A stretch of DNA of 64,000 nucleotides from Escherichia phage vB_Ec-M-J: the sequence record OQ718158.1; one strand, 5' to 3'. A model generated the notes under the pieces. That model saw only the letters and a list, made by a program, of their open reading frames with translations, was not told the DNA's origin and searched no databases. Shown in pieces: positions 787-48,728 of the stretch. The translations under genes and the position numbers were made by a program. Numbering within the stretch: the stretch's first letter is position 1; every line of letters begins with the position of its first letter.

Positions 787-1073
787 ATATTATATTGATA
801 CAAAAAACATATGCGTTATTGATGAAAGAATATACTAATACTTATGATGAAAAGTGCAGTGCAAATCATAATATGTATAAATTCATCACTCAAGAGTACA
901 GGGATTATATATATGCTGCGTTAGTTGGTAGATATTTCAGTACTAAAAAACGTAAAGAACTCAAAGTTGTAGATATTACTTTTTTCTACAACGGGCATAT
1001 AACAATTCATGGTGTGGAACATAATTCACAAATATATCGTAACTACTCATCCAATGAGGTAACATTTTTATGA
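783..1073 (+). CDS. hypothetical protein
   Basis: Track ORF, + strand, tiles with neighbours. Confidence 0.45.
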   Translation: MNIILIQKTYALLMKEYTNTYDEKCSANHNMYKFITQEYRDYIYAALVGRYFSTKKRKELKVVDITFFYNGHITIHGVEHNSQIYRNYSSNEVTFL

Positions 1074-1243
1074 GAGCATTATTTTTTATCTGGAGTCTTT
1101 TTTCACTAGCAGTACTGACAGTAAGTGGGATTTGTTTCCTTTCGACAATGAATGTCTGGTACATTAATTTACTATTCCCATTCGTAGGTGTAGGTTTAGG
1201 ATTTACTTTACATAGTGTTTGTAAGGATTTTAATGGCAAATAA
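1070..1243 (+). CDS. small hydrophobic membrane protein (57 aa)
   Basis: Own translation: MRALFFIWSLFSLAVLTVSGICFLSTMNVWYINLLFPFVGVGLGFTLHSVCKDFNGK; ATGA overlap with upstream stop; below the 60-aa track cutoff. Confidence 0.3.
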   Translation: MRALFFIWSLFSLAVLTVSGICFLSTMNVWYINLLFPFVGVGLGFTLHSVCKDFNGK

Positions 1244-1517
1244 ATCGAATGAAGTACTTGTTGCTGAAACAATGAAGATGGTTTATGCCATAACAACTAG
1301 TAATGATTTGTCTTACCCAATTAAGTCCAAGTTGAGGGATATAACTCTTCAGGTTATACAGCAGTACTACAAATCTAAACACAAAAGTATTATTAATGTT
1401 TATCGTGACTATGAAAGGATTCGCATTTTGTTCTGGAACAAGAATCGAGTTCGTTCGGAATGTGATATAGAAAACTTTAAATTTGAGAATCTTTATTGTT
1501 ACAAAGCGGGACAATAG
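1236..1517 (+). CDS. hypothetical protein
   Basis: ATG at 1236 (MANKS...) with AAGGA RBS; inside track ORF 1215..1517. Confidence 0.45.
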   Translation, partial: ANKSNEVLVAETMKMVYAITTSNDLSYPIKSKLRDITLQVIQQYYKSKHKSIINVYRDYERIRILFWNKNRVRSECDIENFKFENLYCYKAGQ

Positions 1518-1535
1518 CTCAAGTAGTGATATAAT
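1508..1535 (+). promoter_or_regulatory. sigma70-like promoter, extended -10 (GGGACA-N16-TGaTATAAT)
   Basis: -35-like GGGACA 1508-1513, TG 1527-1528, TATAAT 1530-1535; same architecture recurs at 26524 and 48040. Confidence 0.55.
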
Positions 1536-1575
1536 ATTGGGTATGGAACAATAACTAACACAAGGAGTGTGTAAA

Positions 1576-2499
1576 GTGCCAAGTAAAAAGCCAGATTCTG
1601 AAGTATTCAGACTGGTTGATGAAAAATTGAGTTCAATTGGTTCATCGGTAAAAATGGATAGAACAACATACACAACCATATCAAACAAATCAACTTTTTT
1701 CTGTGATGAATGTGGGTTTAGTAAAAATATCATAGTTAGGAATGTGTACAAAAATGGAATATTTTGTCATTGTCCCACATTTAAAACTTTATATAATAAA
1801 TTGGGTGAAATTAATTCAAAATTAAAATTAGATATTTCCACATTCACAACTACAAAAAACAAATCTAGATTTTATTGTGACGATTGTGCGTTTGAAAGAT
1901 ATATGACGGTGCATGATGTTAAGTCTAGAGGTGCATATTGTAAATGTCATTCATTATATTGTATGCCGTTAGATATCGACGAAGCATATAACACTATTAT
2001 GAATAAAATAAAAGATTACTCAAATACAATACATATGGATAAATCTACATACCGTGGTACACAATATAAGGTTAGATTTTATTGTACAGAGTGTAATTTT
2101 GACAAATATATTAATTATAGTAGAGTTAAATGTGGAACTCTTAACTGCAATTGTATCAGACCAATCCCAGAAGAAAGTAAATTATATATTTTAGGAATAT
2201 ATGAACAAAATATTTTAATAAAATATAAAGTTGGTATTTCTACAAAGATTGATAAATCAAGACTAATTAGTATTAGGTCAAAAACTAATTTTATAGTAGA
2301 GGAATTATATTATTTTACTGGAAATACCGAAGTTATTAAAAGTGTAGAATATAATATTTTAAATCTGCTTAAAAATAGTAGTAAATTGTCAAAGGATTAT
2401 TTTGGCGATGGGTATACTGAAACATTTGATTTACAAGATATAAATCTTGTTATTGATTATGTATGTAAATGTTTACTCGAAAATAAATTAAAAATATGA
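1576..2499 (+). CDS. GIY-YIG-like nuclease domain protein with three tandem Cys-rich zinc-ribbon repeats (possible homing endonuclease)
   Basis: Three repeats of F[FY]C[DT][DE]C.F...C.C; C-terminal GIY...YKVGIS with downstream R/E/N; GTG start at 1576 with AAGGAG RBS. Confidence 0.5.
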   Translation: MPSKKPDSEVFRLVDEKLSSIGSSVKMDRTTYTTISNKSTFFCDECGFSKNIIVRNVYKNGIFCHCPTFKTLYNKLGEINSKLKLDISTFTTTKNKSRFYCDDCAFERYMTVHDVKSRGAYCKCHSLYCMPLDIDEAYNTIMNKIKDYSNTIHMDKSTYRGTQYKVRFYCTECNFDKYINYSRVKCGTLNCNCIRPIPEESKLYILGIYEQNILIKYKVGISTKIDKSRLISIRSKTNFIVEELYYFTGNTEVIKSVEYNILNLLKNSSKLSKDYFGDGYTETFDLQDINLVIDYVCKCLLENKLKI

Positions 2500-2524
2500 A
2501 AATCATAAACACAAGGAATGTGAA

Positions 2525-3253
2525 ATGATAGATAATATAAAATTTGCAACAGAAATGGCGAATCAACTCAATATAGCAAATTTTCAAATGTTAACATCTG
2601 TTATGGCTGAACATGCTGCTGCATATTCATCTAGTGGTATACAATGTGGACAAGCTAACATGTTAGCTGATGTTTATAGTGAAGTTCAAAGCAAACAATA
2701 TAGCGTGAAGACATACAAGGATAAGTTCGTAAGTCTTTATATGAATGAAGATATTTCAGAAGACCGCAAATTCACCGATTTTATTATTGAACGCCGTATT
2801 AGTGGGGTTTCAGACCCAAATGCAGAAAGTGATATTGTATTCGATGAGGTATTAAAAGATATATACGAAAATGAATTGAAAAGTAAGAATCATTACAATG
2901 TACGTGAAACTAACACAGTGCTAGTTGGATATGATGAAGACGAACAATATTTCTATTTTCGTATAACAGAAGTTCCATTTGAATATAAAAAACCAACCAC
3001 TACATCTGTAAAAGAATTCACTGAGAAGAGTAAAAACTTCAAGAAACACGAAGGAAACCGTTGTAGTATTAATGGTTATGATGAAAATGGTGTTCATGTT
3101 TATGAATGGGTTTCACCTAATTGCCAGACATACACCCGTTGCTTGAAGAAACGTTATAATTTAGAAGACAATGAATCCTTCTACTTTAAAGTTAAGAAAC
3201 AAGGTTATACTCGCCCTGAAGATTCAGAATTGATGGGTATGGTATATTTCTAA
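2525..3253 (+). CDS. hypothetical protein
   Basis: Track ORF; AAGGAA RBS; leader shares the aacacaaggaRtgtg motif with the 1576 gene. Confidence 0.6.
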   Translation: MIDNIKFATEMANQLNIANFQMLTSVMAEHAAAYSSSGIQCGQANMLADVYSEVQSKQYSVKTYKDKFVSLYMNEDISEDRKFTDFIIERRISGVSDPNAESDIVFDEVLKDIYENELKSKNHYNVRETNTVLVGYDEDEQYFYFRITEVPFEYKKPTTTSVKEFTEKSKNFKKHEGNRCSINGYDENGVHVYEWVSPNCQTYTRCLKKRYNLEDNESFYFKVKKQGYTRPEDSELMGMVYF

Positions 3254-3898: not shown

Positions 3899-4477
3899 AT
3901 GAATGTATTAGAATTATGTACTAAGCTGATTACTATGCGTAATGAGTGGTACGATTGGTTTTATAATGGTACTGATATGGATTTTTCAAAATATCCATTT
4001 ATGGAATCAGGATGTGATGCAAGATACCGCTGGTTGAGCAAAAGTGGTTCTGGTTTATTCATTCGAATTGATGATAGTGGTCAAGGAATTATAAAAGATT
4101 TAATTCGAGTTGAAGAACTCGTCCATGACAATTGGTGTGATAATGATCCATACCTTGGAAATATGATTTATGTAAGTAAAAATGATTGCATATTCGTTAT
4201 CCAGCGTCATGGTGATTCTATGTTTTATGTAGCAGACAACAGTACACCTGACGGTGCAGCAGCCAATGGACTTATGCCTAAGATTGATATATTGAAATTT
4301 GGATTACCTGAGCACTTCCAGATTAGTACTTTATACGATATTCCACCACTTGAGTTCTTTGAAGAATTTAAATTGTACTTCAATGATCTTCAAAAATTGA
4401 GTACTGATCGACGCATGGAAATAACTGTTAAGTACATGGACGGAACGAAATTAACCGATACGGGGATAGAATTTTGA
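3899..4477 (+). CDS. hypothetical protein
   Basis: Track ORF; AGAGGA RBS. Confidence 0.6.
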   Translation: MNVLELCTKLITMRNEWYDWFYNGTDMDFSKYPFMESGCDARYRWLSKSGSGLFIRIDDSGQGIIKDLIRVEELVHDNWCDNDPYLGNMIYVSKNDCIFVIQRHGDSMFYVADNSTPDGAAANGLMPKIDILKFGLPEHFQISTLYDIPPLEFFEEFKLYFNDLQKLSTDRRMEITVKYMDGTKLTDTGIEF

Positions 4478-44214: not shown

Positions 44215-45449
44215 AAAACAATTTTCTAGAACAAACTATTGTGAAACACTTAGCTGGTTCACAGGCGTATGGCACAAGCACACCAGAAAGTGATACCGAT
44301 TATCGTGGTATCTTCCTTGCAAACAAAGAATTTATCCTAACTCCTTTTTTTAATGTTAAGGAAGTTTCAGATCCTTCTGAAGAAGATACTAAATTTTATG
44401 AAGTCAATCAGTACTTAAGTCTGTATACTGAAGCTAACCCAAACATTCTTGAATCACTATGGGTTAAACCTGAACACATCGTAGAAAGTACTGAAATCTA
44501 TGACTATCTACGCTCATTCAATCAGCAATTATTGAGTTCAAAGATTGCACACTCATACAGTGGATATGCATACAATCAGGTTAAGCGTATGTCTAATCAC
44601 CACGGCTGGCTCGATAAGGAACGAATTGCTGAACGTAAACTAAATGAAATTTTAGAAGAACATCCAGTTGACGAAGTACTTTCATGGATGTATGATACAT
44701 TCCCGCAGTATTTGGTAGACCGTTTGAATAAATCCAATCTTCACCCATTCAATGCTACAAAAATTGATTTTGAAAAATACATGCGTGATACTTCATTACA
44801 ATTAGTTTCAACACAAGCATTGAAACAATATCATTTTGTACGTTTAGTACATAATTATAGTACTGATAAAGTATTAGATCGTGATTTCAATTTATTGAAT
44901 TACAATTCAGGGTATGAACTAATCCATTACGGTGAAAACATCTTTGGGGTAATTATCAACCCGAATGAAAGTACAGTGAATGCTGATGGTTCACTACGTT
45001 ACTTCAACAAAGAACGTACTACAGAAGAATTGAAAGTTCGTCCTGAACTCATTGTAAAATTCAATGAAAAGGAATACAAAGAAAATAGTGAGAACCGTAA
45101 GAGTTATCACAAATGGAAGCAGAATCGTAATGCCAAACGTGCTATTCTTGAATCACACCACGGTTATGACTGCAAACATGCTATGCATACAATCAGGCTG
45201 CTGAATACAGCACAGGAAGCACTTGAAACTGGTATCATCCAAGTTCACCGACCGGATGCTGCTATGTTGATGGACATTCGTAACGGGAAGTGGTTGTATC
45301 AAGAAGTTATGGATTATTTCAACGAAAAGGTTGACTACATCCGAAATGTGGCGTATCATAAGACCCATCTACCGAAGCGACCAAACATAAAGTTGGCTAC
45401 GAAGGTACTATTAGATATCCGTGAAATGCAATGGTACAGTAAAAAATAA
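44211..45449 (+). CDS. Pol-beta-superfamily nucleotidyltransferase (RlaP-like)
   Basis: N-terminal hGS-x9-D-x-D motif (AGSQAYGTSTPESDTDYRG) recalled as typical of RlaP-type predicted nucleotidyltransferases. Confidence 0.55.
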   Translation: MKNNFLEQTIVKHLAGSQAYGTSTPESDTDYRGIFLANKEFILTPFFNVKEVSDPSEEDTKFYEVNQYLSLYTEANPNILESLWVKPEHIVESTEIYDYLRSFNQQLLSSKIAHSYSGYAYNQVKRMSNHHGWLDKERIAERKLNEILEEHPVDEVLSWMYDTFPQYLVDRLNKSNLHPFNATKIDFEKYMRDTSLQLVSTQALKQYHFVRLVHNYSTDKVLDRDFNLLNYNSGYELIHYGENIFGVIINPNESTVNADGSLRYFNKERTTEELKVRPELIVKFNEKEYKENSENRKSYHKWKQNRNAKRAILESHHGYDCKHAMHTIRLLNTAQEALETGIIQVHRPDAAMLMDIRNGKWLYQEVMDYFNEKVDYIRNVAYHKTHLPKRPNIKLATKVLLDIREMQWYSKK

Positions 45450-45459
45450 GAGGATTGTT

Positions 45460-45876
45460 ATGCTAAACGAACAAATCAAAGACGCACTACGTGTACTGAA
45501 TCGCGAAGTTAACCGCATCCAGAAAAGTACTGATCGTTATAAACTAATGCATGAACTTAGACTTTCGTTGGAAGCTATCAATAATGGCGAATGGTATCTT
45601 GAACCAGAATATCGCACACGTGAACTAACTGACGTTGAAAAAGCAATTGTCAAATTCATTACAAGTCGCGACAAAAATGCATCCGAAAAAGATGTATCAA
45701 TGAACTTCCATCTTACTAAATGTGAAGTCGTGGAAAAATTTAAATTCGATTGGCTTGACTGGATTGAAATGATCATGGAACTTGAAGAAGAATTCAAAGT
45801 TGAAGTTGATTTGGAATACGAGAATGAAAACACTAAACTGTATAAACTCGTAGATCATATTCAAAAAATGTTGTAA
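45460..45876 (+). CDS. ACP-like (acyl-carrier-protein fold) protein lacking the phosphopantetheine-attachment serine
   Basis: C-terminal FDWLDWIEMIMELEEEFKVEVD resembles ACP helix II ([17 protein letters not shown]) with Ser replaced by Trp; ATG 45460 with AGAGGA RBS. Confidence 0.5.
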   Translation: MLNEQIKDALRVLNREVNRIQKSTDRYKLMHELRLSLEAINNGEWYLEPEYRTRELTDVEKAIVKFITSRDKNASEKDVSMNFHLTKCEVVEKFKFDWLDWIEMIMELEEEFKVEVDLEYENENTKLYKLVDHIQKML

Positions 45877-46617: not shown

Positions 46618-47229
46618 ATGTCAAAATATCAGGTCTACTATGTTGCCAAACTATCACTTCTTGATGAGTTAAATCAAAGAAGTACACAGATGAAACGCTA
46701 TACATATAACGGTGTTACTTTCCGATACTTCCCACAAAAAGTACTTACATTCGTTAAGAATTGTAAATGCGTTGCGTGTGGTATTGAAGCTACTGAAGTT
46801 CGCATTGAGCGTTCACATAGCACTGATCCGGTATATGGTAAACCTCACTTAAATGTCTATGCAGTTTGTGGTCTATATGAAGTACTGATGACAGTAGATC
46901 ATAACCAACTAGCATCTAAGGGTGGACCTGATTTAGAGTCAAATTACAACACAATGTGTTCACGTTGTAACAGTCTTCGTTCTAATAAAACTGAATCAGT
47001 AGGTGAATTCCTGGAAAAAGTTAAGGGTAGAAATCTACTGGAAGAGCATATGAATGATTTTTTCAATAAAGATAAGAAGAAATCTAAAACTCCTACTCCA
47101 GAAGAATTGGAAGAACGCCGTTTACGTACAGAACTATGGGAAACCGACCATATATGGCATGTTCGTGATTTTGGACGACATATGAAAGCTCTAAAAAAAG
47201 AACAAAAGAAATTGAATAATCACAATTAA
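46618..47229 (+). CDS. HNH endonuclease (possible free-standing homing endonuclease)
   Basis: HNH signature VDHNQLASKGG...N..CSRCNSLRSNK plus CKCVACG zinc motif. Confidence 0.6.
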   Translation: MSKYQVYYVAKLSLLDELNQRSTQMKRYTYNGVTFRYFPQKVLTFVKNCKCVACGIEATEVRIERSHSTDPVYGKPHLNVYAVCGLYEVLMTVDHNQLASKGGPDLESNYNTMCSRCNSLRSNKTESVGEFLEKVKGRNLLEEHMNDFFNKDKKKSKTPTPEELEERRLRTELWETDHIWHVRDFGRHMKALKKEQKKLNNHN

Positions 47230-47239
47230 TATGTTATGA

Positions 47240-47273
47240 TAGGGACTTGAGAAATCGAGTCCCTATTTTTTTG
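47240..47273 (+). terminator. rho-independent terminator
   Basis: TAGGGACT...AGTCCCTA hairpin followed by TTTTTTT. Confidence 0.75.
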
Positions 47274-47283
47274 GAGAAAATAA

Positions 47284-47640
47284 ATGAAATCTAAAATCTT
47301 TTTACCGCAGTTAATGTGGCATCTGGCAGAGTTAGATGAAGATGATGAATATACTGACTATGGTACATGGGATGACAGTACTGAATCATTCAATCCAGAT
47401 GTTAAGTACAAAATCATTAGTAATGAAAGTAAAGGGTATAGACGATGGACAGAAGAATTTGATCTAGTTTTTCTTGACATGAACACGAACAAATATTATC
47501 ATTGTACGTATGAACGAGGTTTAACAGAAGATAGACCAGCAGAACCATTCAGAAATGAAACTGATGGTGTTAAGTGCTATGAAGTTTCTGTTACCAGAGA
47601 AGAAATTATCACTTATCGAACTTTGTGGAAATATTTGTAA
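47284..47640 (+). CDS. hypothetical protein
   Basis: Track ORF. Confidence 0.5.
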   Translation: MKSKIFLPQLMWHLAELDEDDEYTDYGTWDDSTESFNPDVKYKIISNESKGYRRWTEEFDLVFLDMNTNKYYHCTYERGLTEDRPAEPFRNETDGVKCYEVSVTREEIITYRTLWKYL

Positions 47641-48038
47641 TGCTAAAAGAATTAGATTTTTCAAACTTAGAAATCATCAGTGCTGTTAAAAATATCTCTG
47701 ACTTTGGAGATGAGAAGTCAGTACTGGTAACTGTTACATTCGTCAAAGAACAGGATAGCTATAGCCATTTAGATGGTATTGAAGAACTAATTCACAAGAC
47801 TAATCTACAAAACGATGGTAAACTCATTAAGCTTCAGGCTTCCTATACGCAAAAATCGTCATTTTTTGTAGACCTAAATAATGTAGTCAAGGTGGTATAC
47901 AATCACCCTGAACACAAATACAGGAACACGACAAGAAACGAGAATGATGCTATAGACTCCAATATCAAAGAGGATGTCGAATTCATCAACACAATTTTTG
48001 ACCGTTGTTCCAAGGATTTGAAAAAGGTATACATGTAA
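47625..48038 (+). CDS. hypothetical protein
   Basis: Track ORF; start uncertain. Confidence 0.45.
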   Translation: MEIFVMLKELDFSNLEIISAVKNISDFGDEKSVLVTVTFVKEQDSYSHLDGIEELIHKTNLQNDGKLIKLQASYTQKSSFFVDLNNVVKVVYNHPEHKYRNTTRNENDAIDSNIKEDVEFINTIFDRCSKDLKKVYM

Positions 48039-48039
48039 C

Positions 48040-48067
48040 GGGACATAATACATCCTAGTGATATAAT
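48040..48067 (+). promoter_or_regulatory. sigma70-like promoter, extended -10
   Basis: GGGACA 48040-48045, 16-bp spacer, TGaTATAAT with TATAAT at 48062-48067; fires into a region without a convincing ORF. Confidence 0.55.
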
Positions 48068-48073
48068 GTATAT

Positions 48074-48590
48074 TGTAAAATGACAACGGACATTGAAAAA
48101 TGGATAATGAGAACCTACTTCTCTTGAAAATGTAAAGGATAGATGAGCTTTACCGTTGTAGCGAACAGCAAAAGAAACCTGTTAGAGTACTGGCAATCAA
48201 ACAAACACGAGATAAGACCACGAATCACGGCGACACGGCTGTATAAAGAACTCCAATAAGCACACAGAGAGTTCCTAGATAGATGTATAAGGTTCGCACC
48301 TTACGAATTTGCTAAGGGAGTTCAAGGATTGTGGACGCGATTTTACAAGAAAGTTGCGTCCAAAATTTGAGAACAGGTACTACTTTGATCGAATAGAGTT
48401 TAGTACTGAGTGCTGTTGATGAAAAGACCAGCGACCGTTGCATATGACTGCGATAGAGAGAAACCGAGCAACCCGCTTTCGCTCTCTAAATTTTGGTACA
48501 GGAAAGATCCGTCCAAAATTTGAGAAATTCGCAATTCGATAATATCCGATGCCATCATCGTCAAGAGAGACTTAATTGTCTCTTTTTTAT
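48074..48590 (+). ncRNA. candidate noncoding transcript(s) of unknown class
   Basis: Promoter-to-terminator unit of ~0.5 kb, visibly GC-richer than surroundings, several hairpins, a ~28-bp imperfect direct repeat (48347-48374 and 48503-48530), no plausible ORF. Confidence 0.3.
48564..48590 (+). terminator. rho-independent terminator
   Basis: AGAGAC-TTAATT-GTCTCT followed by TTTTTT. Confidence 0.7.
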
Positions 48591-48728
48591 TACCTTCATT
48601 CCCCTGCGGGGGGATGAAATAGTCCTCAACAAATCCCGTCAAGCTTTTAAAGTACATTATCATTTTCAGAAGGAACTAGTTTACGAAGTAAACGTAGTGA
48701 CTTCTTGAGTTACGAGAGAACGAAGTGA

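Follow-up and report, generated by a model that had tools for sequence, protein, structure and literature searches.

Homing endonuclease genes (HEGs) of the T5orf172 type are abundant in phages and poorly characterised, their activity being inferred mostly from genomics, and to our knowledge no homing site has been mapped for any of them in the work cited below. T5orf172 is a subfamily of the GIY-YIG nucleases (Barth, Dunham and Seed 2023, PMC10448857). In that paper, 200 of the 229 T5orf172 HEGs carry CxxC...CxC fingers of the CapR, DUF723 or DUF4379 type, often several in one protein as 'beads on a string'; the modules recombine between genes, and the presence of nuclease genes at boundaries of sequence exchange is described as a pattern. 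The enzymes treated there include gp174 and gp165 of Vibrio phage ICP1 and those of T5-like, Plateaulakevirus and VpaJT-like phages. For CapR, encoded by the PLE satellite of Vibrio cholerae, Netter et al. (2021, PMC8096241) showed that DNA binding depends on the finger's four Cys.

Here we describe a member of this class in a jumbo phage of E. coli. The window, that is, the whole stretch of 64,000 nucleotides analysed, matches in its first 6 kb 35 records of Asteriusvirus jumbo phages from E. coli and Salmonella, among them 121Q and PBECO4, with EC.P1 as the closest record (97.1%), and its source is an Asteriusvirus (121Q/PBECO4-like) E. coli jumbo phage. In this host the gene differs from the named T5orf172 HEG lineages: in the text of PMC10448857 at hand, Asteriusvirus is not among the lineages named as enriched, and neither 'jumbo' nor '121Q' was found. 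Strong comparative evidence suggests that the gene, together with a piece of its neighbour gene, was recently copied into this phage.

The endonuclease gene and its expression signals

An earlier note on this DNA had pointed to an ORF at 1576-2499. The ORF is present and encodes a protein of 307 aa, 100% identical to the annotated 'endonuclease' of Escherichia phage vB_Ec-M-J. Its GTG start codon at 1576 lies 8 nt downstream of AAGGAG, and the same GTG is used as start codon by gp432 itself (121Q numbering) in genomes free of the insert. An alternative start, GTG at 1567, was discarded because it overlaps with the Shine-Dalgarno sequence, GTG 1576 being the homologous gp432 start in empty-site genomes. 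The signals around the gene are as follows.

1508..1535, + strand: promoter-like site, GGGACA-16-TATAAT with TG extended -10 (10 of 12 matches, TG present)
1557..1578, + strand: native gp432 translation-initiation region AACACAAGGAGTGTGTAAAGTG, captured by the endonuclease gene (the same sequence initiates gp432 in insert-free Ecwhy_1)
1576..2499, + strand: probable homing endonuclease gene, three zinc-finger repeats and a T5orf172-type nuclease (307 aa; phrog_681 and profile-search relatives)
2508..2527, + strand: duplicate translation-initiation region AACACAAGGAATGTGAAATG at the 3' end of the insert, restarting gp432 (alignment of loci)

The promoter-like site was kept in all 14 alleles compared, with or without the endonuclease gene; judged from its sequence, it would originally have been the promoter of gp432 and now lies upstream of the endonuclease gene. 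The initiation region at 1557..1578 is the upstream copy of an imperfect direct repeat flanking the insert, and the duplicate initiation region was found downstream of the endonuclease gene in 5/5 alleles carrying the gene. A paralogue search in the 64-kb window detected no second copy of the endonuclease gene. Between endonuclease orthologues dN/dS is 0.16-0.24, and the gene is under purifying selection.

Family placement and the zinc-finger array

The search of Pfam with the protein and its two halves gave no significant nuclease or finger family. In the PHROGs collection the protein matched phrog_681 'endonuclease' (E = 2e-20). As a word-indexed protein search retrieved three close orthologues only, an exhaustive profile search was built on these three and detected 53 relatives. 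The family set of 55 sequences was then run against Pfam as a whole: DUF4379 and CapR matches were each observed in 23 of the 55 sequences, MUG113 matches in 18/55, T5orf172 matches in 17/55 and DUF723 matches in 14/55.

The N-terminal part of the protein is composed of three repeats.

1597..1779, + strand: zinc-finger repeat 1, aa 8-68 (C43, C46, C64, C66; FFCDEC..CHC)
1780..1968, + strand: zinc-finger repeat 2, aa 69-131 (C101, C104, C122, C124; FYCDDC..CKC)
1969..2169, + strand: zinc-finger repeat 3, aa 132-198 (C170, C173, C191, C193; FYCTEC..CNC)

Each repeat is about 62 aa long, with the spacing CxxC-17-CxC in all three. The similarity among the three is well beyond chance, pairwise blastp giving E-values of 1e-18, 9e-12 and 1e-14, and 12/12 finger Cys are invariant in the orthologues of 75% and 55% identity. 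The array of three tandem F[FY]C[DT][DE]C...C.C repeats, as described earlier from the letters, was thus confirmed by the blastp E-values and the invariant Cys. The secondary structure predicted for each repeat is helix, three strands, helix, with the four-Cys CxxC...CxC signature, present in three copies, between beta strands. This is the four-Cys DNA-binding finger type of CapR, but the spacing is 17 in the window protein against 24-26 in CapR (PMC8096241). Repeat 3 aligns with a weak CapR match in one relative (P0009) and with the DUF723 match of another (P0013; 24 bits, cutoff 20.9). Neither the whole window protein nor its halves matched Pfam CapR, DUF723 or DUF4379, and only sub-threshold matches to CoiA_N and DUF7838 appeared; in lacking a direct match to these three families, and to T5orf172 and MUG113, it differs from the T5orf172 HEGs.

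The same finger array was observed with a different C-terminal domain in six relatives (P0011, P0021, P0023, P0028, P0035 and P0044), a set with one match to DUF559 and one to the MTES_1575 restriction-endonuclease-like family. From these sequences the array appears to be shuffled between nuclease types. Its exchange onto other C-terminal domains in the six relatives agrees with the domain shuffling published for T5orf172 HEGs, as described in PMC10448857, and is a likeness between the window protein's family and that class.

The C-terminal nuclease domain

The remainder of the protein is a single predicted domain.

2170..2496, + strand: nuclease domain, predicted GIY-YIG fold, T5orf172/MUG113 type (conserved Y204, K218, G220, R229, E258, E282)

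T5orf172, MUG113 and GIY-YIG all failed to match in the Pfam search, either with the whole protein (E limit 1) or with the isolated C-terminal domain (E limit 10). Matches were found for the relatives: P0007 scored 24.0 bits with MUG113 (cutoff 22.3) and P0008 scored 22.1 bits with T5orf172 (cutoff 20), the two matches overlying query aa 194-303 and 143-296, respectively. The profile search for GIY-YIG that had been proposed as a check therefore gave a divided answer, with no direct Pfam match for the protein itself and T5orf172/MUG113 matches for its relatives.

In an alignment of 30 C-terminal domains, Y204, K218, G220, R229, E258, G279, T281 and E282 are invariant, and all are present in the window protein; therefore the real motifs are LYI...YKVG...R...E...GYTE. 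By analogy of sequence, the conserved Y, K-x-G, R, E and E would have catalytic roles. The YKVGIS core of the earlier note proved to be a real second motif, K218 and G220 being kept in 49/55 relatives. The tripeptide GIY itself, at aa 207-209, falls in an alignment column that is not conserved and so was not taken as the catalytic motif; the conserved first-strand Tyr is Y204 in 'LYI'. The first description of the protein as a GIY-YIG-like nuclease with a triple zinc array is thus retained for the superfamily, now in its T5orf172/MUG113 branch, and for the array, but the literal GIY is coincidental.

AlphaFold models support the GIY-YIG alpha/beta fold, with a pLDDT of 74.5 for the whole protein and 94.8 for the nuclease domain alone, and the model of the whole protein gave the same top structural matches as that of the domain. 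Among the lower-placed structural matches were I-TevI (4.5), PD-T4-3 (4.3), Eco29kI (3.8), UvrC (3.6) and T4 EndoII (3.6). A profile of the nuclease domain gave only chance matches (E above 0.1) against the sequences of solved structures. Alignment of the domain profile by hhalign with the I-TevI catalytic domain gave no alignment, and the window protein has no detectable sequence similarity to I-TevI. The structure-specific GIY-YIG nucleases SLX1 and HIGLE share only 13-15% identity with the window protein. These enzymes act in eukaryotic DNA repair, carry a RING or PHD domain as partner and have no homing role. The assignment to T5orf172/MUG113 thus rests on homologues and the predicted fold, with no direct Pfam match.

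With the T4-type free-standing GIY-YIG endonucleases (Seg proteins, I-TevI) the locus shares the features of intronless homing with flanking co-conversion and the 'beads on a string' build. Differences are also apparent: the nuclease domain is C-terminal in the window protein, whereas it is N-terminal in I-TevI and the Seg proteins; LYI and YKVG stand in place of the literal GIY and YIG; and DNA would be bound through the zinc-finger array, in contrast to the NUMOD or helix-turn-helix modules of the T4-type enzymes. N-terminal finger repeats followed by a C-terminal T5orf172/MUG113 nuclease are, by contrast, shared with the T5orf172 HEGs of PMC10448857, as are the position of the gene, free-standing beside a conserved phage gene, and its location at an exchange boundary. 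The architecture had been called unusual; it is in fact typical, since finger-bearing enzymes are the norm (200/229) among the T5orf172 HEGs in that paper. We conclude that the window endonuclease adds one more member to the T5orf172 HEG class already described.

Insertion at the start codon of gp432

Presence or absence of the gene at the same locus in relatives, named earlier as a check on mobility, is indeed polymorphic: among the 35 related records the gene is found only in two, EC.P1 and TH47, and the site at the start of gp432 is fixed. In the window, EC.P1, TH47 and two metagenome contigs, the insertion is always at the start codon of the 121Q gp432 homologue. The two metagenome contigs carry the orthologues of 75% and 55% identity at exactly the same site, both with the duplicated initiation region. 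A precise empty junction was found in nine genomes, including Ecwhy_1, JP4, 121Q, PBECO4, SD-15_S21, A4, JNE01 and WPEC5. In gene-lacking phages of the Ecwhy_1 or 121Q type, the gp431-gp432 junction reads ...AAGGAGTGTGTAAAGTGCTTGACCGTATCCGTTTCGCTACAGAG..., and in the empty genomes ...TGATATAAT...AACACAAGGAGTGTGTAAA-GTG is followed directly by the homologue of 121Q gp432 (V/M-L-D-R-I-R-F-A-T-E...). The promoter-like site, ribosome-binding site and GTG that the window has in common with the empty genomes now start the endonuclease. The inserted cassette is 949 bp long (1576-2524) and closes with a second copy of the ribosome-binding site, AACACAAGGAATGTGAA, and an ATG that serves as the new start of gp432.

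The comparison of alleles covers 14 fetched loci, 5 with the gene and 9 without. Pattern scans of IMG/VR for two gp432 5' alleles gave no match for one and only 121Q itself for the other, and the allele counts therefore rest on these 14 loci.

Another insert was observed in one genome, ph0011 (L002:2045-3529), which carries at the same gp431/gp432 site, corresponding to about position 1576 of the window, an unrelated ORF of 494 aa with similarity to the C-terminal region of tail-fibre proteins (phrog_13714, E = 6e-184). In ph0011 the gp432 allele belongs to the type found without the endonuclease gene. The gp431/gp432 intergenic site appears to be an insertion hot spot.

The location of the gene directly between the promoter-like site and gp432 would also suit a regulator, a domesticated derivative whose array binds the shared promoter and start region and tunes gp432 and itself, as in CapR or in the autorepression by I-TevI, its nuclease no longer driving mobility. 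Such a role is improbable in our estimate. CapR is a DNA-binding repressor derived from the T5orf172 HEG class (PMC8096241), and purifying selection on the endonuclease gene would be in line with a regulatory function. CapR itself is domesticated and plays no active part in homing, whereas the window protein has an intact nuclease domain, three fingers and, by comparative evidence, mobility. Against a regulator, the nuclease motif residues are fully conserved, the sporadic occurrence (2/35) is unlike that of a useful regulator, and the two independent conversion tracts described below point to recent lateral spread. As exemplified by I-TevI, regulation and homing are not mutually exclusive.

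Divergent tracts in gp432 and recoding of the predicted target

Over 6 kb the window is 99-100% identical to insert-free Ecwhy_1, the exceptions being the insert, a separate, unrelated indel of 579 bp, nt 1-591 of gp432, and three upstream patches of 92-97% identity (745-895, 995-1145 and 1345-1575). The major divergent tract adjoins the insert.

2525..3115, + strand: 5' part of the gp432 homologue, apparently co-converted (70-86% identical to the insert-free, otherwise 99-100% identical Ecwhy_1)

Within gp432, 109 of the 111 mismatches between the window and Ecwhy_1 fall in nt 1-591, and identity increases with the distance from the insert: 70% for nt 1-60, 80% for nt 61-312, 86% for nt 313-600 and 98% for nt 601-729. 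A second, independent pair was found in a contig with the gene (L005) and JNE01 without it, the flanks of which, over more than 2 kb on either side, are about 100% identical; beside the endonuclease gene, their identity climbs through 73, 76, 81, 85, 87, 91 and 94 to 100%. A further divergent patch in this pair, at L005 7424-7524, is one that a simple gradient does not explain. Of the upstream patches, that at 1345-1575, the 230 nt directly upstream of the insert, is 92-96% identical between the window and Ecwhy_1; it is unlinked to the endonuclease gene, because the window differs there from gene-carrying EC.P1 as well. A search for the donor of the divergent gp432 tract gave only EC.P1 and TH47 as close. 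Over gp432 nt 1-312, the sole part of gp432 in the 2-kb contig, identity to the metagenome orthologue loci is only 79-88%.

Differences linked to the gene are concentrated at the extreme 5' end of gp432. Nine differences are fixed between the 5 alleles with the gene and the 9 lacking it, and six of these fall within gp432 nt 9-43; of the 15 changes that occurred in parallel in the two near-isogenic pairs, 10 lie in nt 1-30. The parallel or fixed changes in the gene-carrying alleles destroy two tandem CCGT motifs. From this distribution, the target is predicted to be approximately gp432 nt 9-43, and gp432 nt 1-45 of the gene-carrying alleles is presumably a recoded, cleavage-immune form of it. 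Site specificity, decaying co-conversion and an altered target are the expected signatures of intronless homing, and the earlier reading of the gene as a free-standing homing endonuclease thereby gains comparative support from the fixed-site polymorphism, the co-conversion tracts and the recoded target.

Part of this pattern could have other origins. Mosaic tracts could arise from general phage recombination without a nuclease, and the AT-rich recoding of the 5' codons of gp432 could instead have been selected because it helps translation to restart at an internal cistron. More broadly, the ORF and the divergent gp432 segment might be passive cargo, transferred between co-infecting jumbo phages through ordinary homologous recombination at an insertion hot spot without any part for the nuclease, or might serve in conflict between phages or between phage and satellite. 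The phage group is highly mosaic, ph0011 carries its tail-fibre-like ORF at the same intergenic site, and Odn, cited in PMC10448857, is an example of a T5orf172 nuclease that can be co-opted against satellites; however, three lineages, with proteins as little as 55% identical, have the endonuclease gene at one and the same site, the fixed differences cluster in the first 45 nt of gp432, and in each of two separate backbones the divergence gradient starts from the insert. We consider a passive or conflict role highly improbable. The combined pattern is explained less well by each of these alternatives, and by the regulator, than by homing.

The closest gene-carrying relatives are mosaic within 1 kb of the endonuclease gene. 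Window positions 895-1145 are 65-81% identical to EC.P1 but 97-100% identical to Ecwhy_1. Other polymorphisms of these genomes were also observed. An ORF of 192 aa at 3899-4477 (phrog_37163) is cleanly absent from Ecwhy_1, and the annotation of WPEC5 contains no ORF of this size either; the 192-aa ORF represents a second presence/absence polymorphism, without a nuclease signature. A segment of about 3.5 kb in 121Q (L016:9300-12866, gp507 to gp509, annotated as tail fibre and tail protein) has no counterpart at window 45448-45460.

Proposed mode of homing

Taken together, 1576-2499 is very probably a free-standing T5orf172-class homing endonuclease, the cassette of which is copied together with donor gp432 sequence. 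By analogy with CapR, in which four Cys are needed for DNA binding, the three CxxC-17-CxC modules would read an extended DNA site, and the C-terminal GIY-YIG-fold domain, given its conserved Y, K-x-G, R, E and E, would cut nearby. The target would be the gene-lacking allele at the extreme 5' end of gp432, around GTGCTTGACCGTATCCGTTTCGC. In a mixed infection, the cut genome would be repaired from a gene-carrying genome, and the repair would copy the 949-bp cassette (1576-2524) and a graded stretch of donor gp432. With the cassette placed exactly at the gp432 start codon, the endonuclease would run on the promoter, ribosome-binding site and GTG of gp432, and the 3' end of the cassette would bring the duplicate ribosome-binding site and ATG, so that gp432 is still made. 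The gene-carrying alleles, with the recoded target ATGATAGATAATATAAAATTTGC, would presumably be immune to cutting.

In gene-lacking alleles (for instance L003:2084-2101), the candidate target at gp432 nt 9-26 contains the tandem hexamers CCGTAT, CCGTTT and CGCTAC. A link of these three hexamers to the three finger modules is speculative. The joint reading, that the CxxC-17-CxC array defines a distinct subfamily with one module per target hexamer and an insertion mode of 'start-codon capture', is offered as a doubtful proposal; by start-codon capture, the endonuclease takes the promoter, ribosome-binding site and start codon of the target gene and donates a replacement. If true, it would provide a genetically tractable E. 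coli system for mapping the homing site and recognition logic of a T5orf172 HEG.

The HNH gene next to the spanin genes

The second nuclease gene listed in the earlier note is located as follows.

46618..47229, + strand: HNH endonuclease gene (Pfam HNH 26.2 bits, cutoff 21.4; phrog_23285 E = 7e-112)

Both matches confirm its identification as an HNH endonuclease, but the suggestion that it is mobile was not borne out. All 35 Asteriusvirus records contain the gene in the conserved order i-spanin, o-spanin, HNH, and this order is kept in Klebsiella phage K64-1 (Alcyoneusvirus) at 48% aa identity. Neither presence/absence polymorphism of the HNH gene among the 35 Asteriusvirus records nor a known empty site was found. 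Its divergence is in step with the left flank and upstream neighbours (83% aa in the 121Q clade). The stretch of about 70-84% identity to 121Q contains an acyl-carrier-like gene, the spanins and HNH; after the HNH stop codon, identity to 121Q is 99-100% for about 1.4 kb (window 47230-48640) and then drops.

There is only a slight chance that this gene, too, acts in homing or gene conversion. In favour are its true HNH motif and the abrupt rise in identity to 121Q, from about 70-84% to 99-100%, precisely at its stop codon near 47,230; therefore a recombination boundary abuts the gene, which fits the location of nuclease genes at exchange boundaries described in PMC10448857. However, a single boundary in a mosaic genome may be due to chance, and presence and synteny in every Asteriusvirus record with divergence following the left flank, retention beside the spanin genes in the distant K64-1, and the lack of a known empty site argue against mobility. 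As judged from these genome comparisons, the HNH gene is conserved, syntenic and outside the mobile element. Annotators are thereby warned not to take the conserved HNH gene beside the spanin genes for a mobile one.

Implications

The gp432 locus is a clean natural experiment in an E. coli phage, in which each of two independent near-isogenic pairs has one member carrying the gene and one lacking it. It offers a precisely defined 949-bp cassette and a candidate target of about 45 bp with presumed immunity changes, so that cleavage-site mapping and homing crosses would be straightforward there. Homing would explain a local mosaic patch in the Asteriusvirus genomes. The main value of the finding is a clean, testable prediction of a homing site in a phage of E. 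coli.
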